A stretch of DNA of 64,000 nucleotides from Bacteroidota bacterium. GTDB taxonomy: Bacteria; Bacteroidota; Bacteroidia; Flavobacteriales_F; PHOS-HE28. Below are positions 404-52,714 of this stretch, in pieces. Both the position numbers and the translations under genes were made by a program. Every line of letters begins with the position of its first letter. Position 1 is the stretch's first letter. Under the pieces are notes generated by a model. It saw only the letters and a list, made by a program, of their open reading frames with translations. It had not been told where the DNA came from and ran no database searches. The stretch spans positions 25,792 through 89,791 of the forward strand of contig JACTMO010000053.1 of NCBI GenBank assembly GCA_014584605.1. Direction: 5' to 3'.

Positions 404-404
404 G

Positions 405-935
405 TCATTCCACCGCCCGGTGGGCCAGTTGTTTCAAGGTGAGCGCCACCTCCAGCTTGTGTTTGCGGGCGTTGGCCACGCTCAGTTCGTACTTCAAGGT
501 GTTCGCCACCTTCACGAAGTTCGCCACGGCCCCGTCCTCCAAAGCATCGGCATATTCAGTGACGATCAGGGTGGGCTTGTCGGCCAGGTTGCGGTAGATC
601 TCGGGCATCAGCGCCAGGTCCGAACGGCCCACGAAGAGGATGTGACAGCGGGCCACATCGGCGGACCGCGGCAGCTTGCGCACCTCGATCGGCTGCTTGC
701 CGATGGCCTTCGTGCTGTACTTCCTGATCAGCTCCTGGTACAGGTTGGAGCCACCGATCACCCCGATCACGAAGGTGCCCGAGCTCATCGCCGGGTCCTT
801 CCACTCCACGAGCTTGGCGATGTTGTAGATGTAGCTGGCCTGCACAATGGCCGAGGTGTCCTTCTCGGTGTCCAGCTGGGGCGGTGCGGCAGCGATGGCG
901 GGCCAGGCCAGGACCAGGGCCAGCACCCGCCACAT
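405..935 (-). CDS. YfiR/DUF4154-family periplasmic protein
   Basis: A ~177-aa ORF. It has a signal peptide (MWRVLALVLAWPAIAAA) and DUF4154/YfiR-like motifs (YNIAKLVEW, FVIGVIGGS, IEVRKL, CHILFVG, TLIVTE, ANFVKV...LKYELS...LKQLA). Start taken at the internal Met (M41 of the six-frame ORF). Confidence 0.6.
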   Translation of the reverse strand: MWRVLALVLAWPAIAAAPPQLDTEKDTSAIVQASYIYNIAKLVEWKDPAMSSGTFVIGVIGGSNLYQELIRKYSTKAIGKQPIEVRKLPRSADVARCHILFVGRSDLALMPEIYRNLADKPTLIVTEYADALEDGAVANFVKVANTLKYELSVANARKHKLEVALTLKQLAHRAVE

Positions 936-981
936 CCGGGCAGGGGGACTGTGCGGGCTACCTTTGCCCGCCCGGTGCAGC

Positions 982-2460: not shown

Positions 2461-2472
2461 CCGCACCGGGGT

Positions 2473-2991
2473 TCACACCCCGCCCTTGCCCCCCTGGCCC
2501 GGGGCCACAAGCCCCTCCAGGTCGCGGTCAAAGAGATACAGGCCGCCCTTGTCGTTCCCGATCAGGTTCAGCTTGTCGATAAGGGTACGCGCCAGGGCCT
2601 CCTCCTCGATCTGCTCGCTGACGTACCACTGCATGAAGTTGTGCGTGGTGTAATCCTTCTCCTTCAGGCAGGTGTCCACCACCTGGTTGATGGTGGCCGT
2701 GACGTGCGTCTCGTGCTCGAACAGGCTGCTGAAGATGTCGGTGATGCTCTTGAAGTCCGTCGAGGGCCGTTTGAGCGCAGGCACCACGGCGCGGCCACCC
2801 CGCTCGTTCACGAAGCGGATCAGCTTGAGCATGTGCATGCGCTCCTCATCGCTGTGGCGGTAGAGGAAAGCCGCAGTGCCGCTGAGCCCCTGGTTCTCGG
2901 CCCAGCTGGCCATGGCCAGATATGCCTGGCTGCTGTCCGCCTCAATGGCGATCTGTCCGTTGAGGGCGGTCTCGATCTTCTTGGAAAGCAT
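2473..2991 (-). CDS. ftn: Ferritin (non-haem, bacterial ferritin family)
   Basis: 172-aa ORF. Ferritin-like diiron motifs (EADSSQAYLAMASWAE, HSDEERMHMLKLIRFVNERGG, FEHETHVTATIN, HNFMQWYVSEQIEEEA). Confidence 0.9.
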   Translation of the reverse strand: MLSKKIETALNGQIAIEADSSQAYLAMASWAENQGLSGTAAFLYRHSDEERMHMLKLIRFVNERGGRAVVPALKRPSTDFKSITDIFSSLFEHETHVTATINQVVDTCLKEKDYTTHNFMQWYVSEQIEEEALARTLIDKLNLIGNDKGGLYLFDRDLEGLVAPGQGGKGGV

Positions 2992-3021
2992 GGTGTAAAG
3001 GTAGTTGGAGGGCCGGGTCGT

Positions 3022-3585
3022 TCAGCGGTTGTTGAAGTGGTTCATGGCCTGGGCAACGCCCAGCAGGCCCACCTGCACCACGGCCTTGGCGGCCACCTCC
3101 ACCCGGTCGGGAAGGGCGGCAGATTCCTCCGGGGTCCAGCGGCCCAGGACGAAATCGCTCTGCCGCCCCCTGGGAAAAACACTGCCGATGCCGAACCGCA
3201 GCCGGGGGAAGGCCTCCGAGCCGAGCACCTCGATGATGTGGGTGAGCCCGTTGTGCCCGCCGGCACCACCGGAGGAACGCAACCGCACCTTGCCGAACGG
3301 CAGGGCCAGGTCGTCGCTCACCACCAGCACGCGCTCCAGAGGCACGTCCTCCTGGTCCATCCAATAGCGAACGGCCTTGCCGCTCAGGTTCATGAAGGTC
3401 TGCGGCTTGAGCAGGATGAAGGTGCGGCCCTTGTGCCGGAACTCGGCATGGTCCGCGTACCGAGCGGGAGTGAAGCGCACCTCGAAGGTGCGTGCCAGGT
3501 GGTCCAGGACCTCGAACCCTGCGTTGTGCCTGGTGCCGGCGTATTCCGGACCGGGGTTGCCAAGGCCGACGACCAGGTGCTTCAT
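3022..3585 (-). CDS. pth: Peptidyl-tRNA hydrolase
   Basis: 187 aa. MKHLVVGLGNPGPEYAGTRHNAGFEVLDHLA, catalytic GGHNGL, FxRxRxGIG motifs. Classic position downstream of rplY(ctc). Confidence 0.9.
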   Translation of the reverse strand: MKHLVVGLGNPGPEYAGTRHNAGFEVLDHLARTFEVRFTPARYADHAEFRHKGRTFILLKPQTFMNLSGKAVRYWMDQEDVPLERVLVVSDDLALPFGKVRLRSSGGAGGHNGLTHIIEVLGSEAFPRLRFGIGSVFPRGRQSDFVLGRWTPEESAALPDRVEVAAKAVVQVGLLGVAQAMNHFNNR

Positions 3586-3657
3586 GGGCTGCCATGCACG
3601 CGGACCCCGTTGCAGCGGGGTCCGGGCGGGGGGTGTGCGGCCAGGATGGCCGGTTCA

Positions 3658-4314
3658 CTATTTCTTGGCGGCGGGCTTGGCCTCGGGCTTCTTGGCGTCC
3701 GCAGCGGCGGGCGCGGCAGCGGGGGCGGCGCCTGCGGCAGGGGCGGCAGCGGCGGGCGCGGCTTCGGCCTCCTTCTTGGGCATGCTCACCTTCAACACCA
3801 CCTCCTCGGGCTTGTTGAGCAGTTCCAGACCGGAGAACTTCAGGTCTCGCACACGCACGTTCTGGCCCAGTTCCACGTGTTCCACGTCGTACTCCAGGTG
3901 CTCGGGCAGCTGCCCGGGGAGACCCTTCACCTCCAGTTTGCGGAGGGTCTGGTTCAGTTTGCCACCCTTGCGCACGCCGGCGGGCTGCCCCTTCAGGCGC
4001 AGGCTCAGCGACACGCACGCAGGCTTATCCTCATCCAGTTCGATGAAGTCGGCGTGGAGGATCTTGTCGGATACCGGGTGGAACTGGGTCTCTTGTAGTT
4101 TGGCCATCAGCTTGCGACCGCCCAGGTCGAGCTCGATGCGATAGACCTCGGGAGTGAGGACCACTTCGCCCAGAGCGGCCTCATCGGTGGCGAAGTGGGT
4201 GACCTTGCCGCCGCCGTACAGCACGCAAGGCACCTGCTTCGCACGGCGCAGCTGGTCGGCGTTCCGGGTGCCGGTGGCGGTGCGCACGGCGCCGGTGAGT
4301 TCTACCTTCTTCAT
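3658..4314 (-). CDS. rplY: 50S ribosomal protein L25 / general stress protein Ctc
   Basis: 218 aa. L25/Ctc N-terminal domain (MKKVELTGAVRTATGTRNADQLRRAKQVPCVLYGGG...FHPVSDKILHADFIEL) plus an Ala/Pro/Lys-rich C-terminal tail. Sits between prs and pth. Confidence 0.85.
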   Translation of the reverse strand: MKKVELTGAVRTATGTRNADQLRRAKQVPCVLYGGGKVTHFATDEAALGEVVLTPEVYRIELDLGGRKLMAKLQETQFHPVSDKILHADFIELDEDKPACVSLSLRLKGQPAGVRKGGKLNQTLRKLEVKGLPGQLPEHLEYDVEHVELGQNVRVRDLKFSGLELLNKPEEVVLKVSMPKKEAEAAPAAAAPAAGAAPAAAPAAADAKKPEAKPAAKK

Positions 4315-4326
4315 GGGTCGGGGGTG

Positions 4327-5274
4327 TTAGGCGATGATGAAATGGCTGCTGATGCTCTCGTGGCTGCGCACGCGCTGGATGACGTTGGCGAACAGGCCGG
4401 CCACTGTGAGTTGCTTGATCTTGCTGGTGCGGGCCAGCTTGTCGGGCCCGATGGGGATGGTGTCCGTGACGATGAGCTCCGCCAGGCTGGAGCGCTCCAG
4501 CCGGTCGCAGGCATCGCCGCTCAGCACGGCGTGCGTGCAGACCGCGCGCACGCTCTTGGCGCCCAGTTCGGTCATCATGCCGGCGGCCTTGGTCAGCGTG
4601 CCGGCCGTGTCCACCATGTCGTCGATCAGCACCACGTCCTTGTCCTTGACGTCGCCGATCACGGTCATCTTCTCGATCTGGTTGGCCACCTTGCGCTGCT
4701 TGTAGCAGATGGCCATGTCGCAGCCCAGGTGCTTGCTGTAGGCATTGGCCCGCTTGGTGCCGCCGGTATCCGGGGCGGCCATCAACAGGTCCTTGAGGCC
4801 CAGCTCCTTGATGTGGGGCAGGAAGATGCTGCTGGCGAACAGGTGGTCCACCGGCACCTCGAAGAAACCCTGGATCTGGTCGGCATGCAGGTCCATGGTC
4901 ATCACGCGGTCCACACCGGCGGCCGTGAGCATGTTGGCCACCAGCTTGGCGCCGATGCTCACACGAGGTTTGTCCTTGCGGTCCTGGCGGGCGAAGCCGA
5001 AGTAAGGCATGACGGCCACGATGCGCTTGGCGCTGGCGCGCTTGGCGGCATCCACCATCATCAGCAGCTCGAACAGGTTGTCGCTGGGTGGAAAGGTGCT
5101 CTGCACGATGAAGACCAGCTGGCCGCGCACGGTCTCCTCGAAGCTCGGCTGGAACTCCCCGTCGCTGAACCGGCTGACGGTCACGTCCCCGAGCCGCTCG
5201 CCGGAACTCTGGGCGATCTTCTCGGCCAGGTACCGCGTGGCGGTCCCACTGAAGATCTTGGCCGGCTCGATCAT
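4327..5274 (-). CDS. prs: Ribose-phosphate pyrophosphokinase (PRPP synthetase)
   Basis: 315 aa. Conserved PRPP-synthetase motifs (FSDGEFQPSFEETVRG, VMPYFGFARQDRK, VLIDDMVDTAGT). Conserved prs-ctc-pth gene order. Confidence 0.95.
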   Translation of the reverse strand: MIEPAKIFSGTATRYLAEKIAQSSGERLGDVTVSRFSDGEFQPSFEETVRGQLVFIVQSTFPPSDNLFELLMMVDAAKRASAKRIVAVMPYFGFARQDRKDKPRVSIGAKLVANMLTAAGVDRVMTMDLHADQIQGFFEVPVDHLFASSIFLPHIKELGLKDLLMAAPDTGGTKRANAYSKHLGCDMAICYKQRKVANQIEKMTVIGDVKDKDVVLIDDMVDTAGTLTKAAGMMTELGAKSVRAVCTHAVLSGDACDRLERSSLAELIVTDTIPIGPDKLARTSKIKQLTVAGLFANVIQRVRSHESISSHFIIA

Positions 5275-5393
5275 GGCATCCCGCTAAGGGGCTGCAAAGT
5301 TAGAGATCTTCCGCAGGTTATCAACGATCGTTGGTGGAACCTTGCCGGCGCCGCTGCGGCTTTGAACGACCTTCGCCACCGACCCACCACCGG

Positions 5394-7574
5394 ATGCCCT
5401 CCCGAAGCCCCTCCCCCACCCCGGGCGACCTGGCCGCACGTGTGCTGGCCGCCGTGCGGCGGTCCGGCCACGCCGGCGTCACCAGCCAGCAATTGGCCCT
5501 CCAACTGGGCTTGCGCGACAAGGACCGCCGCTACCTGCTGTACGACGCGCTCGAGGCCCTGTTGGACGAGGGGCGCATCCGCAGCGGCAAGAAGGGCCGC
5601 TACATCGCTTCCGGCGGGACCGACACCCTGGAGGGCAGCATCGATATCATCGGCAGCGGCGGGGGCTACGTGCGGCCCGACCCCGCCCTCGGCGCGGACC
5701 AGGGGGATGTGTTCGTGCATCCGCGCAACGTGGGCACGGCCCTGCACGGCGACGCGGTGCGCGTGAAGCTGGTCGGCGGGCGGGGCCTTCGGCCCGAGGG
5801 CCGCGTGCTGGAGGTGCTGCGCCGCCGCCGCACCGAGTTCGTGGGCACCGTGCATCTGAAGCAGGGACGGTTGATGCTGGTGGCCGACGACCAGCGGGTG
5901 CAGCGGCCCTTCCTGATCCCCGCCAACGAAGGCCGGGGCGTCCGCGAAGGCGACAAGGCCATCATCGCCCTGGGCGAGTGGAAAGATGCGCGCGACCTGC
6001 CCCGCGGCCGCGTGGTCCGTGTCCTGGGCCGGGCGGGCGAGCATCAGGTGGAGATGCACGCCATCCTGGCGGAGTTCGGCCTCCCGCTGGAGTTCCCGGA
6101 GAGCGTGCTGGCGGCGGCGGTCGACATCCCCGACGGATGCACCCCCGAGGAGGTGGCCCTGCGTCGCGACGTGCGCGGCATCCCCACCCTCACCATCGAC
6201 CCCGACGATGCCAAGGACCTGGACGACGCGCTGAGCGTGCGTCCGCTCGCGAACGGTCACTGGGAGGTGGGGGTGCACATCGCCGATGTGAGCCACTACG
6301 TCCGGCCCGGCTCGGTCGTCGACCTGGAGGCGGCGGCACGTGCCACCAGTGTTTACCTGGTGGACCGCGTGGTGCCCATGCTGCCCGAGCGGCTCAGCAA
6401 CGACCTGTGCTCGCTGAACCCCCACACCGACAAGCTGAGCTTCAGCGCCATCTTCGAGCTGGACGAAAGGGCACAGGTGAAGGCCGAATGGTTCGGCCGG
6501 ACCGTCATGCGCGCGCAGCGTCGTTTCGCCTATGCCGAGGCCCAGGCCATCATCGACGGCAAGGGCGAGGGCCCCCTGCGGGACGAAGTGCTGCTGCTCC
6601 ACCGGCTGGGGCAGGTGCTGCGCAAGGACCGCATCGCCAACGGCGCCCTGGAGATCGGTGGCAACGAAGTGAAGTTCCGGCTGGACGAGAAGGGGCGGCC
6701 CCTCGAGGTGTACGAGAAGGTGATGGGGCCCGCCAACTGGCTCATCGAGGAGTTCATGCTGCTGGCCAACAAACGCGTGGCCGCATGGGTGGGCCGCCGG
6801 CGCAAGGGGGGTGTTCCGCCCTTCGTGTACCGCGTGCACGACCTGCCCGATACCGAAAAGGTCGAGCAGCTTCGCGCCCTGGCGCGAAGCTTCGGGCACG
6901 AGCTCCACATCGGCAAGGGTGAGGAGCTGCCCCATGCGATCAACCGGCTGCTGCGCGCCGTGAAGGGTCGCGAAGAGGAGAACATCATCAAACAGGTGGC
7001 GATCCGCAGCATGGCCAAGGCCATTTACAGCACCGACAACATCGGCCACTACGGCCTGGCCTTCGAGCACTACACGCACTTCACCAGCCCCATCCGGCGG
7101 TACCCGGACCTGCTGGTGCACCGGGCCCTGGCACACTACCTGGGCGGCGGCCGCCATCTGGACAAGGAACAGCTGGAGGTGAGCTGCCGGCACAGCTCCA
7201 ACATGGAAAAGCGGGCCGCCGACGCCGAGCGGGCGAGCATTCGCTACAAACAGGCCGAATACCTGCTGGCCCGTGTGGGCGAGCGGTTCGAGGGCACCAT
7301 CAGCGGGCTCACCAACTGGGGCGTCTACGTGGAGCTGAAGGCCAACCACTGCGAGGGCATGGTGCCGCTGCGCGAACTGCCCGGCGATGCCTACCGCTTC
7401 GACCCCGAACGCTATCAGGTGGCGGGCCAGCGCACCGGTCGGCGTTTCCGGCTGGGCGACGAGGTGGCCGTGCGGATCAAGGCGGTGGACATGGACCGCC
7501 GCACCGTGGACCTGGTGCTGGACGAGGCCCGTGCGGCCCGACCTGCCGGGCGCGGCCGCGCTAAACGAGCTTGA
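5394..7574 (+). CDS. rnr: Ribonuclease R
   Basis: ~726 aa. N-terminal HTH, cold-shock domain, RNB catalytic domain (IDPDDAKDLDDALS, HIADVSHYV), C-terminal S1 domain and a basic tail (RAARPAGRGRAKRA). Start at internal M22 (ATG 5394). Confidence 0.9.
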   Translation: MPSRSPSPTPGDLAARVLAAVRRSGHAGVTSQQLALQLGLRDKDRRYLLYDALEALLDEGRIRSGKKGRYIASGGTDTLEGSIDIIGSGGGYVRPDPALGADQGDVFVHPRNVGTALHGDAVRVKLVGGRGLRPEGRVLEVLRRRRTEFVGTVHLKQGRLMLVADDQRVQRPFLIPANEGRGVREGDKAIIALGEWKDARDLPRGRVVRVLGRAGEHQVEMHAILAEFGLPLEFPESVLAAAVDIPDGCTPEEVALRRDVRGIPTLTIDPDDAKDLDDALSVRPLANGHWEVGVHIADVSHYVRPGSVVDLEAAARATSVYLVDRVVPMLPERLSNDLCSLNPHTDKLSFSAIFELDERAQVKAEWFGRTVMRAQRRFAYAEAQAIIDGKGEGPLRDEVLLLHRLGQVLRKDRIANGALEIGGNEVKFRLDEKGRPLEVYEKVMGPANWLIEEFMLLANKRVAAWVGRRRKGGVPPFVYRVHDLPDTEKVEQLRALARSFGHELHIGKGEELPHAINRLLRAVKGREEENIIKQVAIRSMAKAIYSTDNIGHYGLAFEHYTHFTSPIRRYPDLLVHRALAHYLGGGRHLDKEQLEVSCRHSSNMEKRAADAERASIRYKQAEYLLARVGERFEGTISGLTNWGVYVELKANHCEGMVPLRELPGDAYRFDPERYQVAGQRTGRRFRLGDEVAVRIKAVDMDRRTVDLVLDEARAARPAGRGRAKRA

Positions 7575-8316
7575 GGCGGCGGGACAGGTCGTCCTTGTAG
7601 CTGCCGCCGATGGGGATCACCTTCTTGTCGTTCTCCAGGATCAGGTTGGGCTGCTCGATGGCCACGATCTTGTCGATGCGCACGATGAAGGACCGGTGCA
7701 CCCGCACGAACTCGCTCTCGGGCAGCTTGCCCTCGATGTCCTTCATGGTGCTGTGCACCGTGTACCGGGCGTTGAGCGTGTTGATCACCACGTAATCCTT
7801 CAGCGCCTCGATGAAATAGATGTCGCTGATGCGCAGCTTCACCAGGCGGCTGTTGCTCTTCACGAAGAGCAGGTCGTTGGCGCTTCCCTGGTTCTCCACC
7901 AGGTTGAAGAGCAGGTCGCGCTCCTTGAGCACCTCGGCCTCCTTCTTGTGCTTGTACAGCGCCATCTCGATCGACGTGTGGATGTCGATCTCCTTGAATG
8001 GCTTGATGATGTATCCGTAGGGTTGGGTGACCTTGGCTTTGTTGAGCGTGCTCTCGTCGGCGTACGCCGTGAGGAAGATCACCGGGATGTTGGTCTCCTG
8101 CCGGATCTGGGTGGCGGCCTCGATGCCGTTCATCTCCCCCTTGAGCATGATGTCCATGAGGATGATGTCCGGCTGTGCCTCCACGGCGAGCTTCACGGCC
8201 TGTTCGCCCGTGGCGGCGGCGCCCACGACATTGTAGCCCAGCTTCTTCAGGCTGTGCTGGATGTCCTTGCTCACGATGCTCTCGTCCTCAACGACCAGGA
8301 CATTGGTCTGGGCCAT
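7561..8316 (-). CDS. LytTR-family two-component response regulator (REC + LytTR DNA-binding domain)
   Basis: 251 aa. Receiver domain (VLVVEDE...DIILMDIML...KPF). C-terminal LytTR domain (RISDIYFIEALKDYVVINT...FVRVHRSFIV). Begins 10 bp downstream of the kinase gene. Confidence 0.85.
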   Translation of the reverse strand: MAQTNVLVVEDESIVSKDIQHSLKKLGYNVVGAAATGEQAVKLAVEAQPDIILMDIMLKGEMNGIEAATQIRQETNIPVIFLTAYADESTLNKAKVTQPYGYIIKPFKEIDIHTSIEMALYKHKKEAEVLKERDLLFNLVENQGSANDLLFVKSNSRLVKLRISDIYFIEALKDYVVINTLNARYTVHSTMKDIEGKLPESEFVRVHRSFIVRIDKIVAIEQPNLILENDKKVIPIGGSYKDDLSRRLKLV

Positions 8317-8325
8317 GTGCGCGAA

Positions 8326-11300
8326 CTACTTGATACGGTCAAAAGTAAGGAAATAGCGCACCCCGGGGCCATCGTGGCGATCCAGCCGCGCATCGAGCTG
8401 TTCGGTCAGGGAGGCCACCAATTGCAGGCCGAGGTTGGCATCCCGTCCGGGATCGAACCCCTCGGGCATGCCGATACCGTCGTCGACCACGCCGATGGTG
8501 ACGCGGCCACCGGCGCTGACAAGACTGATCTCGATGGAGCCTCCGGCACCATCGGGGTAACCGTGCTTGAGGGCGTTGCTGATGAGCTCGTTGAGGATCA
8601 GCCCGCAGGGTATGGCCTGGTCCAGCACCAGGTCCACCTTTTGCAGGTCGGTGCGCAGTTCCACCTTGCCGCCGAGGCTGTAGCTGATCACCAGGTTGCG
8701 GGCCAGCCGGTCGATGTAGGTGGCCAGGTCCACGCTGCTGAAGGTCTTGTTCTGATACAGGCTTTCGTGGATGAAGCTCATCGAGCGGATGCGGTCCTGG
8801 CTTTCGCGGATCAGGTCGAGCATGCGCTGATCGTGCCCCACGTAGGCGGTCTGTAGGTTGAGGATGCTGCTGATGATCTGCAGGTTGTTCTTGACACGAT
8901 GGTGGACCTCCTTGAGCAGCACCTCGTTCTCCCGGAGGCGCTCGATCAGTTGTTGCTGGGCCTCCTTCTTGTCGGTGGTGCCGTACGCCAGGCAGCTGAT
9001 CTCGGCCACCTGTCCGTCCACCCGGATGGGGTTCAGGAAGTTCTCGACCCAGCGACTGTGGCCGTCGTTGTCGCGCATCTCCACCTCGAACTGTCTGGGC
9101 CGGCCCTTCATGGCGGCCTCATAATGGGCGCGGATCGCACGGCGCTCGGCCGGTGCCACGCGCTCCAGCATGTGCTCCAGGAAGGCATCGCCCACCTGCG
9201 GGGTGTAGCCCAAGGCCTCCGTGCTGCTGTCGCGGAAATGGTCGTTCAGCGCGGTGATCCGGAAATCGCGGTCCAGGGTCCAGACCATCATGTTGGCGCT
9301 GTTCTCGAAGATCGCCGTGAGGCGGGCGGCCTGTTCGCGCACCGTGCGCTCGGCCAGCTTCTGCTCGGTGATCTCGTGCCCCACACCGAACACCTCGCGC
9401 ACCTTTCCGTCGGCGCTGAGCACCGGGCTCAGAAAGACCTCGTTGCTCACGAACCGCCCCTGGGCGTCCGCGAGCTCGGTCTCGAAACGAAGCGGCTTCC
9501 CGGCGAAGGCCTCCCTGTACTTCGCCTCCCAGAAGGCGTGGTAGGTGTCGTTGGCGAACCGTTTGCGGGGGCCCTTGCCGTCGGGGTCCAGTTCGGGGCT
9601 CCTGCCGTACAGACGCACGATCATCTGCTCATAGCCCTTGTTGAAGCTGGTGAGCGCGATGCGCTCATTCACGCTCCAGAACATGTGCTCGCTGCTCTCG
9701 AACAGGGCCCGCAGCTTGGCCTCCTGCCGTTCGGCCAGCCTGCGGGCCTCCTCCTCCCGGGTGACGTTGCGATAGATGCCCCGGGTGGCCACCGGGCGCC
9801 CGTCCACCATGCGCACGCTGCGACCGCCCTCCACAGTGACCTCGCGCCCATCCCGAGCAACGAGCACCGTGGTGACCGGACCGCCCGCGCCGCCCTTGAG
9901 GTCCTCCTCGAACCGGGTGCGGTACGCGTCGCGATAGGCCGGATGCACCACGTCCCACACGGTGAGCGCGGCGACCTCCTGTTCGGTATAACCGAGGGTG
10001 TCACGCCAGGCCTTGTTCACATACTCGAACCGCCCGTTGGGCGTCACGCTCTGGATCAGGTCGGTGGCGTTCTCGAAGAGATCGCGGTAGCGTTCCTCGC
10101 TGGCGCGCAGAGCCTCCTGGTCGCGCTTGGCGTGCGTGATGTCGCGGCTCACACCCATGCTGCCGAGCAGGGTTCCTTGCTCGTCGTACAGCCGGGATGC
10201 GGCCAGGAAGGTGAGGAAGACCTCGCCCTGGCGATCGATGTTCTGGACCTCGCCGGCAAAGGCCCCGTGCGCGTTGAGCTCGGCCTGGACGCGTTGGTAG
10301 TCCTCCGGACGGGCATAGAGCATGCGCGAATGCCTGCCCATCACCTCTTCGGCCTCGTAGCCGAAGCGCACCATGGCGGCCGGATTGAACTCGCTGATGT
10401 GCCCGGCCTCGTCGACGGCGATGATCATGTCCAGGGAGCTGTCCACCAGGCTTCGCGCAAAGCGGCGTGAGCGGCGCAGCTCCTCCTGGGTGCGGCGGTG
10501 GTCCATGATCTCCTGCCGCAGCACCCGGTTCACCTCCTCGGCCATCTGGGCGCGTAGTCCCACCGCCAGGGTGGCGCGCATGCGCACGGCATCGTGCAGC
10601 TGGACCTGCAGGGCCTCGGCACCCTCGTGGAAACTGCGCGCGGCCGACAACAGCACCAGCGAGGTGGACCCGTTGGCGCGCAGCATCTCCAGTTCCACGG
10701 CAGGGCTTTCGCCGCTGTGGTACGCCTCCTCCAGGTTGGCGGCCAGGGCCTCGCGATGTGCGGGCTCCACCGCGTCGGACAGCCATGTTCCCGTGAACGC
10801 GCGACCCACCAGTTGATCGGCGGCCGGGTTGGCATAGCGCACCCGGCCTTCCTGCACGATGAGGATGCCCTCCGGGGCCTTTTCCACCAGGCGCCGGTAG
10901 TTGTCCAGCAACGCCTGCTGCTCCAGCTCGGCCTGTACCTGATGGGAGCGGTCGATCAGCGTTCCGGCGATGGTGGTGGTCCCCTCCTGCGATCGGTCCA
11001 GGAACACGTTCTCCAGCACATGCACGGTACGACCGCTGGCATGACGCAGACGGATGGTGTGGTTGATGAGATGGCCCCGGTCGGTGAGCTCTTCCAGGTA
11101 CTCCGCACGGTCCCTTTCATCCACGTACAGGGTCCGTGCATCCACGCGCATCAATGCCTCGCGGTCCGCGTAGCCCAGGATCCGTGCCATCGAGGCATTA
11201 CATTCCAGGAACCTGCCGTCCAGTGTGGTCCGGAAGACCCCCGCCATGTTGCGTTCCACCAGGTCCTCGTACTGCCTGCGCAGGTACATATAGACCTTGG

Positions 11301-11346
11301 CCAGCTCCTGGCTGCGCTCCCCATCGCCTCCATCCCGTCGGCTCAT
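8326..11346 (-). CDS. Multi-PAS sensor histidine kinase, HisKA_2 type
   Basis: 1006 aa. Several PAS/PAC repeats. C-terminal HisKA_2 signature ([18 protein letters not shown]) and HATPase_c (LILNELISNALKHG...DDGIGMP). No obvious TM segment, so a cytoplasmic sensor. Forms an operon with the downstream LytTR regulator. Confidence 0.85.
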   Translation of the reverse strand: MSRRDGGDGERSQELAKVYMYLRRQYEDLVERNMAGVFRTTLDGRFLECNASMARILGYADREALMRVDARTLYVDERDRAEYLEELTDRGHLINHTIRLRHASGRTVHVLENVFLDRSQEGTTTIAGTLIDRSHQVQAELEQQALLDNYRRLVEKAPEGILIVQEGRVRYANPAADQLVGRAFTGTWLSDAVEPAHREALAANLEEAYHSGESPAVELEMLRANGSTSLVLLSAARSFHEGAEALQVQLHDAVRMRATLAVGLRAQMAEEVNRVLRQEIMDHRRTQEELRRSRRFARSLVDSSLDMIIAVDEAGHISEFNPAAMVRFGYEAEEVMGRHSRMLYARPEDYQRVQAELNAHGAFAGEVQNIDRQGEVFLTFLAASRLYDEQGTLLGSMGVSRDITHAKRDQEALRASEERYRDLFENATDLIQSVTPNGRFEYVNKAWRDTLGYTEQEVAALTVWDVVHPAYRDAYRTRFEEDLKGGAGGPVTTVLVARDGREVTVEGGRSVRMVDGRPVATRGIYRNVTREEEARRLAERQEAKLRALFESSEHMFWSVNERIALTSFNKGYEQMIVRLYGRSPELDPDGKGPRKRFANDTYHAFWEAKYREAFAGKPLRFETELADAQGRFVSNEVFLSPVLSADGKVREVFGVGHEITEQKLAERTVREQAARLTAIFENSANMMVWTLDRDFRITALNDHFRDSSTEALGYTPQVGDAFLEHMLERVAPAERRAIRAHYEAAMKGRPRQFEVEMRDNDGHSRWVENFLNPIRVDGQVAEISCLAYGTTDKKEAQQQLIERLRENEVLLKEVHHRVKNNLQIISSILNLQTAYVGHDQRMLDLIRESQDRIRSMSFIHESLYQNKTFSSVDLATYIDRLARNLVISYSLGGKVELRTDLQKVDLVLDQAIPCGLILNELISNALKHGYPDGAGGSIEISLVSAGGRVTIGVVDDGIGMPEGFDPGRDANLGLQLVASLTEQLDARLDRHDGPGVRYFLTFDRIK

Positions 11347-21396: not shown

Positions 21397-21930
21397 TCAA
21401 CGGCTGTGGTAGAAGATGAGGCTGGCTTTGGCCAGGGTGTTCGCCCAGAGGTTGAAGCTCACCATGGCAGGGCCGGCCTGGGCGTCCAGCCCAAGACGTT
21501 CCACGCCCAAGGCAAACACGGTGATCACGTACCGATGAGTTCCATGCCCCGGGGGCGGGCAGGGTCCACCATACCCCGGTTCGCCGTAGTCGTTGCGGAC
21601 CTGTATGGCCGAGGCGGGCAGGTCCGTGCTGTCGGGGCTTCCGGCCCCGGTGGGCAGGGTGTTGGTGGTGGCGGGCAGATCGAAGACCACCCAGTGCCAC
21701 CACCCGCTGTCGGTGGGCGCATCCGGGTCGTGGATGGTCACCGCAAAGCTCTTGGTACCGGCCGGGGCGTTGGCCCAGCTGAGTTGTGGGCTCAGGTTCC
21801 GGCCGTTGCAGCCCGACCCGTGGTACAGGTGCGGTTCGGTGGCCTGGCCGCCGAGGTCTGCGCTGCTGAGGGTGAAGGTCGGTTGCGGGGTGGGGGACTT
21901 CGCGGGTGGGTTGGCCGGTGGGGCGGGCAT
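21397..21930 (-). CDS. YbhB/YbcL-family PEBP (phosphatidylethanolamine-binding protein-like)
   Basis: PEBP/YbhB motifs (LSPQLSWANAPAGTKSFAVTIHDPDAP...GYGGPCPPPGHGTHRYVITVFAL). Start taken at internal M58; the upstream in-frame part looks non-coding. Confidence 0.65.
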   Translation of the reverse strand: MPAPPANPPAKSPTPQPTFTLSSADLGGQATEPHLYHGSGCNGRNLSPQLSWANAPAGTKSFAVTIHDPDAPTDSGWWHWVVFDLPATTNTLPTGAGSPDSTDLPASAIQVRNDYGEPGYGGPCPPPGHGTHRYVITVFALGVERLGLDAQAGPAMVSFNLWANTLAKASLIFYHSR

Positions 21931-21995
21931 GGTCGGCGAATGGATCCCCGAAGGTAAACCGTCCGGCCCGAGCGTACCGGAGCCAAGAGGGGCGT

Positions 21996-22055
21996 TGGCG
22001 GAATGAAGCCCCCTCCTGTCCGGCAGAACCCTCCGCCGGACCTGGCAAGGAGGGG
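21996..22055. repeat. Dispersed copy of the B-type hairpin repeat (same family as the elements at 50793-51870)
   Basis: gaatgaagccccctcctgtccggcagaaccctccgccggacctggcaaggagggg. Shares the outer CCCCTCCT/AGGAGGGG arms and inner TCCGGCGGA/TCCGCCGGA arms. Lies in the PEBP-ade intergenic region. Confidence 0.5.
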
Positions 22056-22078
22056 CCGGGATGGGACCCCGGCGTGCA

Positions 22079-23716
22079 TCACAGGATCTCCGCAGGGTCA
22101 TCGACCAGGCGGAAGCTGTCGCCGTCGAAGAGGCCCCGGTCGCTCAGCTTCAGGTGGGGGATCACCAGCAGCGCCATGAAGCTCAGCGTCATGTACGGCG
22201 CAGCGAGGGTGCTGCCGAGTTCCCGGGCCTCGCGGTCCAGCTCGGCGTAGGCGTCGGCCACGGTCCAGGCGTCCGCATCGGTCATGATGCCGGCCACGGG
22301 CAGGGGCAGCACACGGTGGTGGGCACCGTCGGCGAGACTGATGCCGCCCTGGTGCGCGATCACCTGGTTGATGGCGGCACAGAGGTCGTGGTCGTTGGTG
22401 CCCACGGCCACGATGTTGTGGCTGTCGTGGGCCACGCTGCCGGCGATGGCACCGCGCTTGAGCCCGAAGTTGGTGACCCAGGCCACCGCCGGGGGAGCAT
22501 CGCCGTAGCGGTTCACCACGGCGATCTTCAGCAGGTCCTTGGCCGTGTCGGTCACGCATCGACCTTCGACCACGGTGGGGGGCATCCAGCGTTTTCGCGT
22601 GATCAGCTGGCCGTCCAGGACCTCGATCACCAGCAGGTCGCTGGCGCAGGCCGCCACTGCGAAGTCCTCGGGCCGCTTGGCCGTGCAACGGAAGTGGTTG
22701 GGCCGGTCGGCGGGCACGCGGGCAATGAGGCTCCGGCCCTGTTCGGCCACCAGCTGCCCGCGCACCCAGGTGCGTTGTACGCGGAAGTCCGTCAGGTCCT
22801 GCACCTGGATGAGGTCGGCGCCATCGCCGGGGCGCAGCAGGCCCACCGGCATGCGGTAGTGCTCCACGGGGTTGATGCAGGCCGCGCGCAGCACCTGGAA
22901 CACATCGTGGCCCAGGGCCACCGCGCGTGCGCACAGCCGGTCGATGTGACCGGCCACCAGGCTGTCCGGATGTTTGTCGTCGCTGCAGAACATGAGCCTG
23001 GGCGCATGGTCGTGCAGCAGGCCGATCAGCGCCTCGAAGTTCCGGGCGGCGCTGCCTTCGCGCACCAGGATCTTCATGCCGCAGGCCAGCTTGTCCAGCG
23101 CCTCCTCGCGGGTGACGCATTCGTGGTCGGTGCTGATGCCGGCGGCGATGTAGCGCCGGGCCAGCTCACCGCGCAGGCCGGGGGCGTGGCCGTCCACAGG
23201 CTTGCCCAGGCGGTGGGCGTGCGCGATCGCGGCCATCACGCCGGGGTCGCCGTTGAGCACCCCGGGGAAGTTCATCATCTCGGCCAGGTAGCCGATGTCG
23301 GGATCGGCCAGCAGGTTCCCGATCGCCTCCGCGTCGATGCGGGCGCCGGCGGTCTCGAAGGGCGTGGCCGGCACGCAGCTCGGTGCGCCGAAGTGGAAAT
23401 GAAAGGGCACACGCTTGCCGTTGGCGATCATGTACGCCACGCCTTCCGTGCCCAGCACGTTGGCGATCTCGTGCGGGTCGCTCACGGTGGCCACGGTGCC
23501 GTGCACCACCGCCACCCGGGCGAACTCCGAGGGGATGAGCATGCTGCTCTCCACGTGCACATGGGCATCCACGAAGCCCGGCAGCAGGTAGCCCTCCACC
23601 GGCCCGGGCAGCTCGGTGATCGCCGCGATGCGCCCTTCCGCCACGCGCAGCTCCACCGGCACGATGCGCCGTGCGGGGATGTCCACCAGGTTGCCGCGGA
23701 CGGTGAGCTCGGACAT
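22079..23716 (-). CDS. ade: Adenine deaminase
   Basis: 545 aa. Amidohydrolase metal-binding motifs (GFVDAHVHVESS, HECV...). Global similarity to Ade (adenine deaminase). Confidence 0.9.
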   Translation of the reverse strand: MSELTVRGNLVDIPARRIVPVELRVAEGRIAAITELPGPVEGYLLPGFVDAHVHVESSMLIPSEFARVAVVHGTVATVSDPHEIANVLGTEGVAYMIANGKRVPFHFHFGAPSCVPATPFETAGARIDAEAIGNLLADPDIGYLAEMMNFPGVLNGDPGVMAAIAHAHRLGKPVDGHAPGLRGELARRYIAAGISTDHECVTREEALDKLACGMKILVREGSAARNFEALIGLLHDHAPRLMFCSDDKHPDSLVAGHIDRLCARAVALGHDVFQVLRAACINPVEHYRMPVGLLRPGDGADLIQVQDLTDFRVQRTWVRGQLVAEQGRSLIARVPADRPNHFRCTAKRPEDFAVAACASDLLVIEVLDGQLITRKRWMPPTVVEGRCVTDTAKDLLKIAVVNRYGDAPPAVAWVTNFGLKRGAIAGSVAHDSHNIVAVGTNDHDLCAAINQVIAHQGGISLADGAHHRVLPLPVAGIMTDADAWTVADAYAELDREARELGSTLAAPYMTLSFMALLVIPHLKLSDRGLFDGDSFRLVDDPAEIL

Positions 23717-50523: not shown

Positions 50524-50792
50524 GTCCCGGTCCGCACCGTGTGGTGCGAGGGGGCATTTGCCCAATGCAGCGAATGCTGGGCATCCGGTGGCGTTCATGG
50601 GACTCGACGAGAGTGCGCGGGGCACCATGGGGAACATTGCGGCACCACTCGGCCTTGTGCTCCCTTTTGCAAATTCGAAGGTCCTGGCCAGGACTCCTGT
50701 GGCCGGGCCGCTGTATTTTCCGCCCTGAACGGTCCTCCCATGCGTTTTCTGGTCGTTGTTCTGCTGTTCTGCTGCGTGCAAAGAACCGATCA

Positions 50793-51113
50793 AGTCCCCT
50801 CATGTCCGGCGGAGCACTCCGCCGGACCCGGCAAGGAGGGGTACGGGGTGGTTACCGCTGATGGGGAACAAGATCCCTGAGTTGAAACCTCCCCCGGCCC
50901 CTCCTTGTGCGGCGCGTGGAGGGTTCCACGCGCAGGAGGGGAGTTGAACGGAATGAAGCCCCCTCCTGTCCGGCGGAACGCTTCGCCGGAAATGGCAAGG
51001 AGGGATACGGGGTGGTTTCCGTTGATGGGGAACAAGATCCCTGAGTTGAAATCTCCCCCGGCCCCTCCTTGTGCGGCGCGTGGAGGGTTCCACGCGCAGG
51101 AGGGGAGTTGGAT
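50793..51113. repeat. Left array of structured hairpin repeats (B1-A1-B2-A2) flanking the DUF559 gene
   Basis: B unit ~88 bp (…CCCCTCCTGTCCGGCGGA-loop-TCCGCCGGACCCGGCAAGGAGGGG…GGGGAACAAGATCCCTGA). A unit ~75 bp (GTTGAAACCTCCCCCGGCCCCTCCTTGTGCGGCGCGTGGAGGGTTCCACGCGCAGGAGGGGAGTTG). Both have nested inverted repeats. Units are 90-97% identical between copies. Confidence 0.6.
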
Positions 51114-51130
51114 TGCGTCAAGGGTCCTCG

Positions 51131-51514
51131 CTAAGTGCGATCGCTGGACGGCTCTTCCGCGAGTGTCGTGCGGATCATTTCCAGCACACCCTCCGGATCC
51201 TTCAGTAATTCCCGGTTCTCGATCCGAAGGACCCGGATCCCCAATGCACGCAGGAGCTCATCCCGGGCGCCGTCGTTCGCGTCGCCGAGCACCTCAAAGT
51301 GCTCTGCGCCATCCAGTTCGATCGCCAGTCGCTTGGCCGGACAATAGAAGTCCAGGACGATCGAGCTGCCGATGCTGTGCTGCCGACGGAACTTGAATCC
51401 ATCGAGTTTTCGTCCGCGGATCAACGACCACAACGCATCCTCCGCGGCCGTGGACGCCGCCCGAAGCCCGCGGCGAATTTCGAGGAGTTCCGGCCTGTTG
51501 TGGATACTGGTCAT
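51131..51514 (-). CDS. DUF559 endonuclease-domain protein (Vsr/restriction-endonuclease-like fold)
   Basis: ~127 aa from internal M148. DUF559 signature (…RKLDGFKFRRQHSIGSSIVLDFYCPAKRLAIELDGAEH…RDELLRALGIRVLRIENRE). Confidence 0.7.
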   Translation of the reverse strand: MTSIHNRPELLEIRRGLRAASTAAEDALWSLIRGRKLDGFKFRRQHSIGSSIVLDFYCPAKRLAIELDGAEHFEVLGDANDGARDELLRALGIRVLRIENRELLKDPEGVLEMIRTTLAEEPSSDRT

Positions 51515-51548
51515 CCCGGTCGTGTTGTGGTGGATGAAGGTATGGGCT

Positions 51549-51870
51549 GAGTTGAAACCTCCCCCAGCCCCTCCTTGTGCGGCGCGTGGAGTATTCCACG
51601 CGCAGGAGGGGAGTTCCGCGATCAAGCCCCCTCCTGTCCGGCGGAACACTCCGCCGGACCCGGCAAGGAGGGGTACGGGGTGGTTACCGTTGTTGGGGAA
51701 CAAGATCCTGAGTTGAAACCTCCCCCGACCCCTCCTTGTTCGGCGTGTGGAGGGTTCCACACGCAGGAGGGGAGTTGGATCGGTTGTGCGGCGCGTGGAG
51801 TATTCCACGCGCAGGAGGGGAGTTGAACGGAATGAAGTCCCCTCCTGTCCGGCGGAACGCTCCGCATTCG
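51549..51870. repeat. Right array of structured hairpin repeats (A3-B3-A4-A5'-B4') flanking the DUF559 gene
   Basis: Same A and B unit types as the left array. Copy A4 carries paired compensatory changes that preserve the inner stem (GCGTGTGGA/TCCACACGC versus GCGCGTGGA/TCCACGCGC). Confidence 0.6.
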
Positions 51871-51982
51871 GGTCTTCTTGCACTGGAGCTCCTGCCGGTC
51901 GGGTCGTGCGCCACGAACGACAACAAGGAAAAAATTCACACAGAACGCCGATCATTCAAGGAACGTGGATACTTTTCCACCA

Positions 51983-52714
51983 GTGAACCCCACGGTATTC
52001 ATTGTAGAGGATGAGCCGCAGGCCCGCGAGCTGATCCGCGCGTTGTTGACCAAGCGGCATCCACGCGTCAAGCTGGTGGGCGAGGCGGGCGATGTGCATA
52101 GCGCCGCGGACGCGATCCGTGCCGCAGTGCCGCAGGTGCTCTTCCTGGACGTGGACCTGGGCGGGCTGGACGGGTTCGACCTCCTGCGTCGTATCGTGCC
52201 GGTGGAGCCGTTGGTGATCTTCACCACCGGCAAGGCTGAACACGCGGTCCAGGCCTTCGATGTGCGGGCGGTCGACTTTCTGGTGAAGCCCATCAGCGGT
52301 CCGCGCTTCGACGAGGCCGTGCTGCGCGCCCTGGAGCAGTTGGAACGGCGGGCACCCCAGGTCCCCCCGGGCATGGTGGTGAGCGACCGCCGCATTGCAC
52401 TGCCCGACGCGCGGGGGCTGACGCTGCTTCCGCTGGACGAACTGCTGTACTGCGCCAGCGACAACAACTACACCCTGGTGCACCGGCGCGGCGAGGCGCG
52501 GCCACTGGTGGTGAGCCGAGGCATTGTGGCGTTCGACGACGCGCTGCACGACCAGGGCTTCGTGCGCATCCACCAACGGTACCTGGTGAACCGCAAGCAC
52601 ATCCAGCGCTACATCAAGGGCGAGGGCGGCGAGGTGATCATGAGCGATGGCGCCAACCTGCCTGTGAGCCGCCGCCAGAAGGCCGACCTGATGGAGGCCC
52701 TGGAGCGGCTCTGA
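51983..52714 (+). CDS. LytTR-family response regulator (REC + LytTR), orphan
   Basis: ~243 aa. Probable GTG start at 51983. Receiver domain (FIVEDEP...VLFLDVDLGGLDGF...KPI). LytTR domain (LLYCASDNNYTLVH...FVRIHQRYLVN). Confidence 0.75.
   Translation: MNPTVFIVEDEPQARELIRALLTKRHPRVKLVGEAGDVHSAADAIRAAVPQVLFLDVDLGGLDGFDLLRRIVPVEPLVIFTTGKAEHAVQAFDVRAVDFLVKPISGPRFDEAVLRALEQLERRAPQVPPGMVVSDRRIALPDARGLTLLPLDELLYCASDNNYTLVHRRGEARPLVVSRGIVAFDDALHDQGFVRIHQRYLVNRKHIQRYIKGEGGEVIMSDGANLPVSRRQKADLMEALERL

Follow-up and report, generated by a model that had tools for sequence, protein, structure and literature searches.

REPIN-like palindromic repeats associated with a Vsr-like DUF559 nuclease gene in Bacteroidota and other phyla

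The region at 50790-51870 of a 64,000-nucleotide stretch of Bacteroidota DNA (hereafter, the window) is probably a local array of dispersed REPIN/BIME-like palindromic repeats that are partnered with a Vsr-like nuclease, and we propose that the nuclease drives their spread. The nuclease and the repeat recur together across several phyla, which suggests a selfish repeat/nuclease partnership that is apparently undescribed. No earlier link between DUF559 and repeats was found in the openly accessible literature searched. The partnership between the DUF559 nuclease and the repeat is supported by the data; the route by which the repeats would be mobilized we infer.

Read directly, the array consists of one module of approximately 68 nt, here called X, in seven complete and two partial copies whose orientation alternates around a DUF559 gene (Table 1). 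The layout of X is CCCCTCCTG, a variable inner hairpin, CAAGGAGGGG and GGGG(T/G)(G/A)GGTT. Thus, CCCCTCCTG and CAAGGAGGGG form the outer stem of a sequence-conserved C-rich/G-rich hairpin, within which lies the variable hairpin, and a conserved G-rich tail follows at the 3' side. An extra short inverted-repeat stretch is present at both ends. The module begins with TGAACT/TCAAGC-CCCCTCCTG and finishes with GGGGTGGTT. Its copies are basically organized as convergent doublets, X-> (loop of ~25 nt) <-X, one of which is made up of copies A1 and B1. An earlier note on this DNA regarded A and B as two repeat types, but the two are opposite orientations of a single module and differ in their inner stems. 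The order given in that note, B-A-B-A, then the gene, then A-B-A-A'-B', is correct.

Several searches define the extent of X. Repeat finding in the array region detected numerous inverted repeats and a direct repeat of 164 nt, and TRF reported a period of 164 (1.9 copies, 92% matches) at 50792-51110. There are four A cores and three B cores in the window, one of the latter being the solo copy at 22010, against an expectation of zero in shuffled sequences. A covariance model of X (CM R1) was run over the 64-kb window with filters off, and it retrieved seven full copies (62-84 bits), one partial copy and one solo copy, with no further match. The array and the solo copy are therefore the only two X loci in the window. 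The solo copy is situated 6 nt 3' of the stop codon of an adenine-deaminase gene and upstream of a PBP-family gene.

Table 1. Coordinates of the X modules and associated genes in the window
Feature	Position	Strand	Evidence	Remarks
Solo module X	22004..22073	+	CM R1 51.4 bits	Without canonical G-rich tail
Histidine-kinase gene remnant	50740..50789	+		ATG and ~45 nt of ORF; rest overwritten by array
Module X copy B1	50790..50859	+	CM R1 62.5 bits, pattern match	Inner stem TCCGGCGGA/TCCGCCGGA, tail GGGGTGGTT
Module X copy A1	50880..50947	-	CM R1 83.6 bits	Inner stem CGCGTGGA/TCCACGCG, tail GGGGGAGGTT
Module X copy B2	50954..51023	+	CM R1 62.6 bits	
Module X copy A2	51044..51111	-	CM R1 78.1 bits	Adjoins DUF559 stop codon downstream, in the sense of the gene
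DUF559 (Vsr-like PD-(D/E)XK) nuclease gene	51131..51514	-	PF04480	127 aa
Module X copy A3	51550..51617	-	CM R1 80.3 bits, unit dissection	X-> upstream of DUF559 gene
Module X copy B3	51622..51691	+	CM R1 71.2 bits	
Module X copy A4	51711..51778	-	CM R1 80.9 bits	Compensatory C>T / G>A in inner stem
Truncated module A'	51773..51820	-	Partial CM match 51784-51813, 20.4 bits	Limited to 5' outer arm plus inner hairpin
Truncated module B'	51840..51865	+		5' half only; right edge of array

The gene within the array, which starts just past the tail of an X, was correctly assigned to DUF559 in the earlier note: ORF 51131-51514 matches Pfam PF04480 (101.8 bits, cut-off 20.6; E = 2.4e-29). A profile of the family matches the PDB entries 3hrl, which is a DUF559 structure (E = 1e-29), and 3r3p (5e-5). 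An AF2 model of the 127-aa protein (pLDDT 87) was matched by Foldseek to the same two entries, the second of which is I-Bth0305I, and to 1vsr, which is Vsr. In a family alignment of 35 homologues, the catalytic-type residues D55, E66, D68 and H72 do not vary and D81 hardly varies; dN/dS is ~0.1 at a dS of ~2. By these measures, the gene is under purifying selection and its catalytic residues are kept. A longer ORF of 274 aa (51131-51955) was rejected as the gene, because its N-terminal extension is read through repeats. PADLOC returned only weak partial nuclease-domain matches, and the NCBIfam YcjD model scored under its cut-off.

The array is bordered on one side by a LepA/small-protein pair and on the other by a LytTR regulator. 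A Pfam inventory of the scanned ORFs of the window contains no transposase, RAYT (Y1_Tnp) or integrase. Few relatives (20) occur on viral contigs, so phages are not the main carriers.

At its left edge, the array adjoins the remains of another gene. Positions 50740-50789 align to the start of a 786-aa TPR/His_kinase gene at two syntenic loci (L197 and L198), whose flanks are 84-94% identical in nucleotide sequence and which carry the kinase gene intact, with no X and no DUF559. These "empty" loci hold the kinase gene where the array sits, and not a vacant doublet. This synteny shows the array to be an insertion in place of a histidine-kinase gene, a circumstance overlooked in the earlier note. 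The element is not harmless at this locus, where the sensor kinase is erased and its response regulator left orphaned.

The pairing of X with DUF559 extends to many other genomes. Close relatives of the gene (74-78% identity) that reside in other genomic neighborhoods lie in the same kind of X array, and X also brackets the gene at loci L104, L099, L105 and L115. We picked 80 DUF559 loci from metagenomes by protein alone (GC content 32-71%) and scored X within 220 nt of the gene. An X-type module lies within this distance at 46 of the 80 loci but in only 17 of 2216 control windows (0.8%) from the same contigs, which is an enrichment of ~70-fold. The 34 loci without a scored X include several with variant motifs missed by the detector, and others may truly lack X. 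Pairing was also found in named genomes: Nitrospirae, a Methylococcus-like gammaproteobacterium, Hymenobacter glacialis and Rubricoccaceae. The earlier suggestion of a REP/BIME-like family is thus borne out well beyond the one locus.

The modules have a preferred orientation relative to the gene. Among the 46 positive loci, X is upstream and forward in 32, downstream and reverse in 36, and both in 24, and the opposite orientations are rarer (eight upstream-reverse, 10 downstream-forward). The usual layout is therefore X-> gene <-X. When the flanks of 68 loci were aligned in inverted orientation, the median Smith-Waterman score was 38, compared with 16.7 for shuffles; this test for TIRs is judged against shuffles, because a direct-orientation control is confounded by modules that are palindromic and arrayed.

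These data bear on the idea that X and DUF559 are independent elements, in which X would be a REP-like or terminator-like intergenic repeat kept for the host's benefit (termination, mRNA stability, supercoiling) and DUF559 would merely land or persist in "safe" repeat-rich DNA. Most X loci have no DUF559 nearby, the solo X directly follows a stop codon in the manner of a terminator, and orthologous singlets are kept between MAG species (L077/L083). However, the enrichment over windows of the same contigs and the orientation preference, both upstream (32 versus 8) and downstream (36 versus 10), make independence improbable. Moreover, the same motifs flank DUF559 in phyla with GC contents from 32 to 74%, which would not be expected of unrelated host-specific repeats, and motif variants shift in concert on the two sides of a gene (L211, L212; flank classes).

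Copies of X without the gene are widely dispersed. The module is spread over many contigs of at least eight Flavobacteriales MAG species, one MAG has at least 17 8-kb blocks that contain it, and a related repeat family is present in Pontibacter. The gene-less copies comprise 35 singlets, 14 "><" doublets and longer arrays, with just one lone "<>". Spacing is regular in the "><" doublets and "><><" arrays, at ~60 nt and ~17 nt. Copies that bear the gene are far fewer than gene-less singlets and doublets, and in L099 a copy of X truncates a DUF559 gene. The flanks of doublets and singlets have no target-site duplication, only a 6-nt inverted-repeat extension, TSAASY, and no precise pair of empty and filled sites was found for a single module. 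This dispersal, the alternating orientation and the 46 of 80 loci against 0.8% of controls together favor what the earlier note had offered as one option, a REP/BIME- or MITE-like family with an associated nuclease.

Where the layout is the dominant one, GGGGTGGTT and AACCACCCC enclose the gene, which thereby occupies the position of the ~25-nt loop in gene-less doublets; the hairpins of such doublets are spaced ~60 nt apart. This arrangement might be produced by a free-standing homing endonuclease of the EDxHD/Vsr type. Its homing site would be the vacant X-> <-X doublet, the gene would split the half-sites and spread by double-strand-break repair, and the doublets would be targets or relics and not mobilized elements. 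The catalytic fold and motif are those of I-Bth0305I, a homodimer that contacts ~60 bp of a pseudo-palindromic target (PMC3239194). The gene unit also parts from the repeat unit at a single point, directly after GGGGGAGGTTTCAACTCAG (CTCAG), and a protein similarity of ~50% across phyla suggests horizontal spread.

We nevertheless consider homing unlikely, although it deserves to be weighed. Many vacant doublets that seem intact share an array and a genome with the gene, and an active enzyme should fill or destroy these sites. Both in the window and in the two relatives nearest to it, there is no canonical <-X downstream and the next X-> comes directly after the gene, so no loop plus <-X remains there. 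In Pontibacter and L104, the gene occupies the other gap (<-X gene X->), which indicates that the position of the gene in arrays is not rigid. Homing also leaves the dispersal of gene-less singlets and doublets unexplained. Finally, the N-terminal part of the 127-aa protein has two helices only and lacks the extra DNA-binding domain of I-Bth0305I.

The conservation of X itself differs between its parts. All eight pairs of the inner helix have double-sided changes, amounting to 122 cells as compared with 53±5 in shuffled and at most 36 in slid controls. The covariation claimed in the earlier note is therefore real, and the paired changes that it described in copy A4 are present (GCGTGTGGA/TCCACACGC at 51729-51772). 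In a comparison across phyla, 95% of 61 distinct sequences fold into the second hairpin, and 39 different stems are represented. Inner stems covary strongly, and the outer stem and G-rich tail hold their sequence; the outer stem and tail remain nearly invariant at divergences that saturate synonymous sites.

Maintained helices raise the question of whether X acts as RNA, with the hairpins serving as 5' or 3' UTR control of DUF559 expression or stability, or as a small-RNA array. Each 165-nt unit folds much better than shuffles (z ~-5), flanking TIRs would pair the ends of an mRNA, and in some low-GC loci the G-rich tail is 5-12 nt ahead of the ATG and could be a Shine-Dalgarno sequence. Several observations nonetheless lead us to view a structured RNA as very improbable. 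Both strands fold equally well, either orientation of the module can be found in a single array and with respect to host genes, and gene-less copies are plentiful in places remote from any DUF559. Searches of Rfam gave zero matches at the gathering threshold in the whole window, and at a permissive E-value only far-sub-threshold chance matches to miRNA hairpin models in the array region. The loops of the second hairpin are C-GNA-G triloops in 29 of 52 cases, on the G-rich strand. Such triloops are typical of DNA mini-hairpins, and Hirao et al. are said to have found d(GCGAAGC) to be an exceptionally stable one. The asymmetry of G.T versus A.C in inner stems is weak (16 versus 6). A structured noncoding RNA array, the other option of the earlier note, is thus not supported. 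The SD-like lead into a short ORF that the note described as AGGAGGGG(N13)ATG has a spacing of 11 nt, and the ATG is missing from the equivalent junction in related arrays; neither the ATG nor the short ORF is conserved there, which leaves the idea unsupported.

Structured imperfect palindromes in tandem around a small promoter-less ORF also resemble an integron-type attC array (CALIN) or a CRISPR-like array in which DUF559 would be a cassette, and GTTGAAC and GTTGGAT at some junctions fit GTTRRRY. We attach almost no probability to these readings, and both were rejected, as the earlier note had already done for CRISPR. The units adjoin one another in alternating orientation, with neither ORFs nor unique spacers between them, and the same modules are also dispersed as singlets. 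Furthermore, the GTTRRRY-like strings are direct repeats, unlike the inverted R''/R' pair of attC, and neither integrase nor cas genes are among the genes of the window.

For the repeat/nuclease partnership that we favor, we propose the following mechanism. The conserved outer stem and G-rich tail would be recognized by the nuclease, which probably binds the module pair, with its two-fold symmetry, as a dimer. It may act on these parts when they form hairpins or a cruciform, or when they lie open as single strands. The nuclease would nick or cut there. Through host recombination and repair, modules would subsequently be copied, converted or amplified, either together with the gene or without it, and so reach new sites and build up tandem arrays. 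This logic would parallel that of RAYT proteins with REPs and REPINs, with a hydrolytic Vsr-type nuclease in place of an HUH transposase. Binding and cutting of X by DUF559 is putative, and the mobilization step is conjecture; we know of no strand transfer by a hydrolytic PD-(D/E)XK nuclease.

A partnership of this kind would have several consequences. It proposes a testable function for DUF559, a widespread family of small nucleases of "unknown function," whose partner would be a structured palindromic repeat. It also offers a candidate protein partner for REP-like repeats that have no GTAG or CGTC tag and no RAYT, and the partner of such repeats is listed explicitly as an open question in the REP literature (PMC3733652). 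If the nuclease does recognize the module, then a Vsr-type hydrolase instead of an HUH transposase would provide a new enzymatic route to repeat proliferation, and the two would make up a compact, programmable-looking pair of protein and DNA structure. A practical consequence is that the repeats inflate ORF calls, as in the 274-aa ORF here and in the repeat-derived C-terminal tails of database homologues.

Compared with known nucleases, DUF559 shares with EDxHD homing endonucleases such as I-Bth0305I not only the catalytic fold and motif but also the association of a selfish gene with a pseudo-palindromic DNA site. In contrast to I-Bth0305I, however, the gene is outside any intron or intein, its putative site is a multi-copy structured repeat, and vacant sites persist next to it. 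The Vsr repair endonuclease has a homologous fold; it acts by nicking and reads DNA that is distorted or mismatched. Unlike Vsr, the protein matches PF04480 and not the Vsr family, and no cytosine methyltransferase neighbor suggestive of dcm-vsr-type linkage was found in the window or in the DUF559 loci inspected. Among mobile elements, MITEs and their IS parents are likewise small and TIR-bounded, with gene-less forms (X-> <-X) more numerous than gene-bearing ones (X-> gene <-X). They differ from X in that X has no DDE or other transposase and no detected target-site duplication, and its TIRs are themselves hairpins.

The E. coli DUF559 gene ycjD provides a further comparison. This gene terminates within nested hairpins of the C-rich/G-rich kind, which continue past its end and have a G-rich tail (CCCCTCGCCCCTCTGGGGAGAGGGTTAGGGTGAGGGG); the likeness to X is one seen by eye. 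The adjacent sequence is a dispersed repeat, found in all 5426 E. coli genomes at a median of 15 places per genome, and it is presumably the "box C" family. Its motif sequence differs from X, and there is no upstream module. We tentatively raise the possibility, which we hold with more doubt than confidence, that small DUF559 proteins including YcjD are dedicated partner nucleases of cross-phylum "untagged" REP-like repeats. They would constitute a second, RAYT-independent REPIN-type system, in which Vsr-type nicking of hairpins or cruciforms (conserved C-rich/G-rich hairpin, GNA-looped hairpin and G-rich tail) maintains and disperses the repeats. Such a system may also explain orphan families such as the box-C-like elements of E. 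coli.

The closest parallels to X are the REP, BIME and REPIN elements that are associated with RAYTs. Palindromes in alternating orientation are defined as BIMEs, and inverted doublets as REPINs (PMC2817692, PMC3337134); X is found in both arrangements. Unlike REPs, X has neither a GTAG nor a CGTC tag (tag criterion in PMC3733652), and it is longer (~68 nt), with a nested or two-hairpin structure and a conserved G-rich tail. Its partner is a Vsr-like PD-(D/E)XK protein (DUF559) and not an HUH Y1 transposase of the IS200/IS605-like type. Nevertheless, X resembles REPs in being a short imperfect palindrome of high GC content that is probably dispersed mostly between genes and, as in REPtrons, one or a few nuclease genes are flanked by repeats whose gene-less copies are more numerous.

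Direct reading of the region, together with sampling of related loci, establishes a conserved partnership between a gene for a Vsr-like nuclease (DUF559) and a structured palindromic module of ~68 nt, here called X. The repeats of the earlier note are present as described, with four copies of the core of its unit A and three of unit B in the window (one B core stands alone, at 22010) and none in shuffled sequence. A repeat search showed the array to be dense in inverted repeats, with a direct repeat of 164 nt, and Tandem Repeats Finder gave a period of 164, with 1.9 copies and 92% matches. However, A and B, which had been taken for two repeat types, are a single module in opposite orientations, as became evident when the array was re-read in the sense of the DUF559 gene (minus strand) and compared with related loci. 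X consists of (T)GAACT/TCAAGC, CCCCTCCTG, an inner hairpin of 8-9 bp with a 4-nt loop, a bulge of ~5 nt, CAAGGAGGGG, 2-3 nt, and GGGG(T/G)(G/A)GGTT. The unit of 161-165 nt comprises two convergent modules, a doublet (X->, a loop of ~25 nt, <-X), and as single-stranded DNA either strand of one unit adopts a three-way fold (z about -5 versus shuffles).

Coordinates of features in the window and at comparison loci
Sequence	Positions	Strand	Feature
Window	7561-11346		Second LytTR response regulator with histidine kinase
Window	21397-22101		ORF call, PBP-family gene
Window	22004-22073		Solo X
Window	22079-23716	minus	Adenine-deaminase gene
Window	50524		End of left alignment with syntenic loci
Window	50740-50789		Retained kinase start (ATG at 50740)
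Window	50790-51870		X array
Window	50792-51110		Tandem Repeats Finder call
Window	51131-51514	minus	DUF559 gene (127 aa)
Window	51131-51955	minus	274-aa ORF
Window	about 51953		Alignment with syntenic loci resumes
Window	51977-52714		LytTR response regulator at array
L088 (JAXLVG010000001.1)	1-1200		Tandem X units
L036 (CALMPI01)	3385-3561		Doublet
L065 (CALMPI01)	5333-5481		Doublet
L099 (JADKGB010000001.1)	633-880		Interrupted DUF559 gene
L001 (GCA_016715895.1)	1-5200		Locus adjoining IS elements
L001 (GCA_016715895.1)	7009-7773		Longer DUF559 protein
L196 (E. coli K-12, NC_000913.3)	1351040-1351830		ycjD and adjacent hairpin

A covariance model of X, with 53 distinct modules as input, was run on the window unfiltered. 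Its hits within the array were seven full copies, at 62-84 bits and with strands clearly discriminated, and one partial copy; the solo copy was the only other hit in the 64 kb. In the gene sense, the array reads > < > DUF559 > < > < and closes with two truncated copies beyond the last of these. The gene-bearing unit matches the repeat unit exactly as far as ...GGGGGAGGTTTCAACTCAG, beyond which the gene leader begins. The next X-> starts straight after the DUF559 stop codon, and the downstream <-X expected there is absent from the window array.

The solo copy has a degenerate G-rich tail and lies 6 nt past the stop of the adenine-deaminase gene and upstream of a PBP-family gene. Because the ORF call for the latter reads through the repeat, its true start is probably further downstream. 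Read-through likewise lengthens the DUF559 frame to 274 aa, and four database homologues (P0032, P0062, P0063 and P0018) carry repeat-derived C-terminal tails, such as ...TTPDPSLTKEGS, which is translated AACCACCCC...CCCCTCCTT...AAGGAGGG. This inflation of ORFs is an annotation hazard.

The structure of X is under constraint. Across the 53 modules, the sequence of the outer helix does not vary, and 98% of cells are paired. In the inner helix, both-sided changes number 122 cells, versus 53±5 in column shuffles (0 of 500 reach 122) and no more than 36 with the partner slid out of register; at least ten unrelated inner stems occur, including CGCGTGGA, AGCAGCGA, TCCGGCGGA, CCGATCGA and GCGGGCGA. 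The earlier note had argued for selection on structure from one paired change in its copy A4. That change is present, and the argument holds with far more force than a single pair could give it, since all eight inner-helix pairs show double-sided changes. Outside Flavobacteriales, a second hairpin of X folds in 95% of 61 distinct sequences with 39 different stems (MFE/nt -0.45, versus -0.17 shuffled), and C-GNA-G triloops on the G-rich strand account for 29 of 52 loops of this hairpin. Triloops of the d(GCGAAGC) type, described by Hirao and colleagues, reportedly form exceptionally stable DNA mini-hairpins. These triloops, and the occurrence of modules in both orientations, point to a structure that acts as DNA rather than RNA. 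The X motifs are kept at a divergence (dS about 2) where neutral DNA would be randomised. Readings of X as RNA elements, as independent terminator-like repeats, or as integron or CRISPR arrays are contradicted by the features tested.

The ORF inside the array is indeed a DUF559 gene (PF04480, E=2.4e-29), and an identical copy of its protein exists in the database. With its family profile, the DUF559 structure 3hrl in the PDB scores E=1e-29, and the I-Bth0305I homing-endonuclease catalytic domain (3r3p) scores E=5e-5; an AlphaFold model (pLDDT 87) matches both and, more weakly, Vsr. Residues D55, E66, D68 and H72 are conserved without exception across 35 homologues. Comparing the window gene with its two close relatives gives a dN/dS of 0.09-0.12 at dS about 2; the gene is functional. 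The protein does not belong to the known defence proteins, and no methyltransferase gene neighbours it. Published classifications place DUF559 only with Vsr and EDxHD nucleases (PMC3424549, PMC9403480).

To sample the family independently of the repeat, 80 metagenomic loci were picked by protein only (42-54% identity, GC 32-71%). An X-type module lies within 220 nt of the gene in 46 of the 80, a count from a strict detector that scores as negative several loci with variant motifs (CCTCCCCTT.../GGAGGGGTT or CCCCTCTTAAG.../GGGGAGTTATG); control windows elsewhere on the same contigs gave 17 of 2216. Modules were upstream and forward in 32 loci, downstream and reverse in 36, and both in 24. The canonical form outside Flavobacteriales is CTCCCCTCCT-loop-AGGAGGGG, a second small hairpin, and GGGGTGGTT, arranged as X, 5-60 nt, the gene and an inverted X copy. 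The isolate Hymenobacter glacialis has a clean X-> gene <-X with TIRs of ~75 nt. The pairing also occurs in Pontibacter, further Flavobacteriales MAGs, a Nitrospirae MAG, a Rubricoccaceae MAG and a Methylococcus-like contig, on which the gene is flanked by uvrC and a uvrA-like gene. Viral contigs yielded only 20 relatives, the closest again with variant X flanks.

Individual loci show further arrangements. On metagenome contig WNFA01185620.1 (L182), an outer inverted repeat, TCCATTTTAACCGGTGAGGCATGACA / TGTCATGCCTCGCAGGTTAAAATGGA, located ~30-60 upstream and also downstream of the element, encloses the entire X-> gene <-X, an arrangement suggestive of a longer TIR in this lineage or of an element nested within another palindromic one. 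In a Flavobacteriales MAG (L099), insertion of an X at around residue 86 has cut a same-clade DUF559 gene, which is a pseudogene inside an X array. A related locus (L001) adjoins several IS elements (rve, DDE_Tnp_1); a second DUF559 protein there, of 254 aa with an N-terminal extension, is without flanking X modules.

The presence/absence polymorphism that the earlier note proposed to seek at orthologous loci was found. Loci with an orthologue of the adjacent LytTR response regulator (93%, 87% and 74% identity) have the gene order LepA, small protein, 786-aa TPR/His_kinase gene, response regulator, 359-aa protein, PKD/T9SS protein, and none of these syntenic loci has X modules or a DUF559 gene. 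The window keeps the kinase upstream region, the ATG and about 45 nt of the ORF ahead of the array, whose right junction is just upstream of the response regulator. Judging from the alignment breaks and this retained start, the array with DUF559 (about 1.4 kb) has replaced about 3.1 kb, including the histidine-kinase gene, in a recent lineage. Deletion or overwriting of the kinase gene has left the regulator orphaned of its cognate kinase. Presence and absence at this locus show the element to be invasive and damaging; a target-site duplication was looked for and not found. Elsewhere in the window, a second LytTR response regulator and its neighbouring multi-PAS HisKA_2 kinase form an intact pair, unlike that at the array.

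The two closest relatives of the window DUF559 (74% and 78% identity; from a Flavobacteriales MAG and a JGI metagenome contig) are both inside X arrays with the same gene/repeat junctions, in neighbourhoods quite different from that of the window. Scanning species-representative genomes with an X template whose inner stem was left free gave at least 112 stretches. Among the matches listed, about 40 are from at least 8 Flavobacteriales MAG species and about 30 from Pontibacter; the others look like chance matches. The listed Flavobacteriales loci hold 114 modules. They occur as 35 singlets, as 14 '><' doublets and as longer '><><' arrays, and a '<>' pair stands isolated only once; successive hairpins are about 60 nt apart within a doublet, and about 17 nt separate one doublet from the next. 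Two doublets on different contigs of one MAG (L036, L065), one with an extra hairpin inserted in its central loop, have identical outer flanks over at least 30 nt on both sides, and the duplicated unit was therefore larger than the doublet. L088 represents an array type of longer period, with a ~348-nt unit four times in tandem, each with one X and identical flanks.

Gene-less copies are in excess; the arrangement they favour, X-><-X, equals the gene-bearing one with its gene removed. The position of the gene within arrays varies. Pure homing, with the vacant doublet as homing site, is the main rival explanation and would account for the position of the gene; however, it leaves unexplained both the many vacant doublets persisting beside the gene and the dispersal of gene-less copies. 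We prefer a model in which paired modules, possibly extruded as hairpins, would be recognised by a DUF559 dimer through their conserved outer stem and G-rich tail and would be nicked there, after which recombination or repair might copy or amplify the modules.

In E. coli K-12, ycjD (DUF559) ends inside a C-rich/G-rich hairpin; beyond it come a ~55-nt duplicate remnant of the ycjD 3' end and then a nested hairpin, CCCCTCGCCCCTCTGGGGAGAGGGTTAGGGTGAGGGG. The downstream hairpin is a dispersed repeat, found in 5426 of 5426 complete E. coli genomes at a median of 15 places per genome; it may be the 'box C' family.

A search of the literature open without subscription gave no description of the DUF559-repeat association, and protein partners of untagged palindromic repeats are an open question in REP studies (PMC3733652). 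The nearest enzymatic relative of DUF559 with a known selfish role, I-Bth0305I, is homodimeric and makes contact with about 60 bp of a pseudo-palindromic site (PMC3239194). REP/REPIN elements with their RAYT resemble the X system in alternating orientation, inverted doublets and one partner gene flanked by repeats (PMC2817692, PMC3337134), but the X system is without the HUH transposase and the GTAG/CGTC tag that define that family (PMC3733652).
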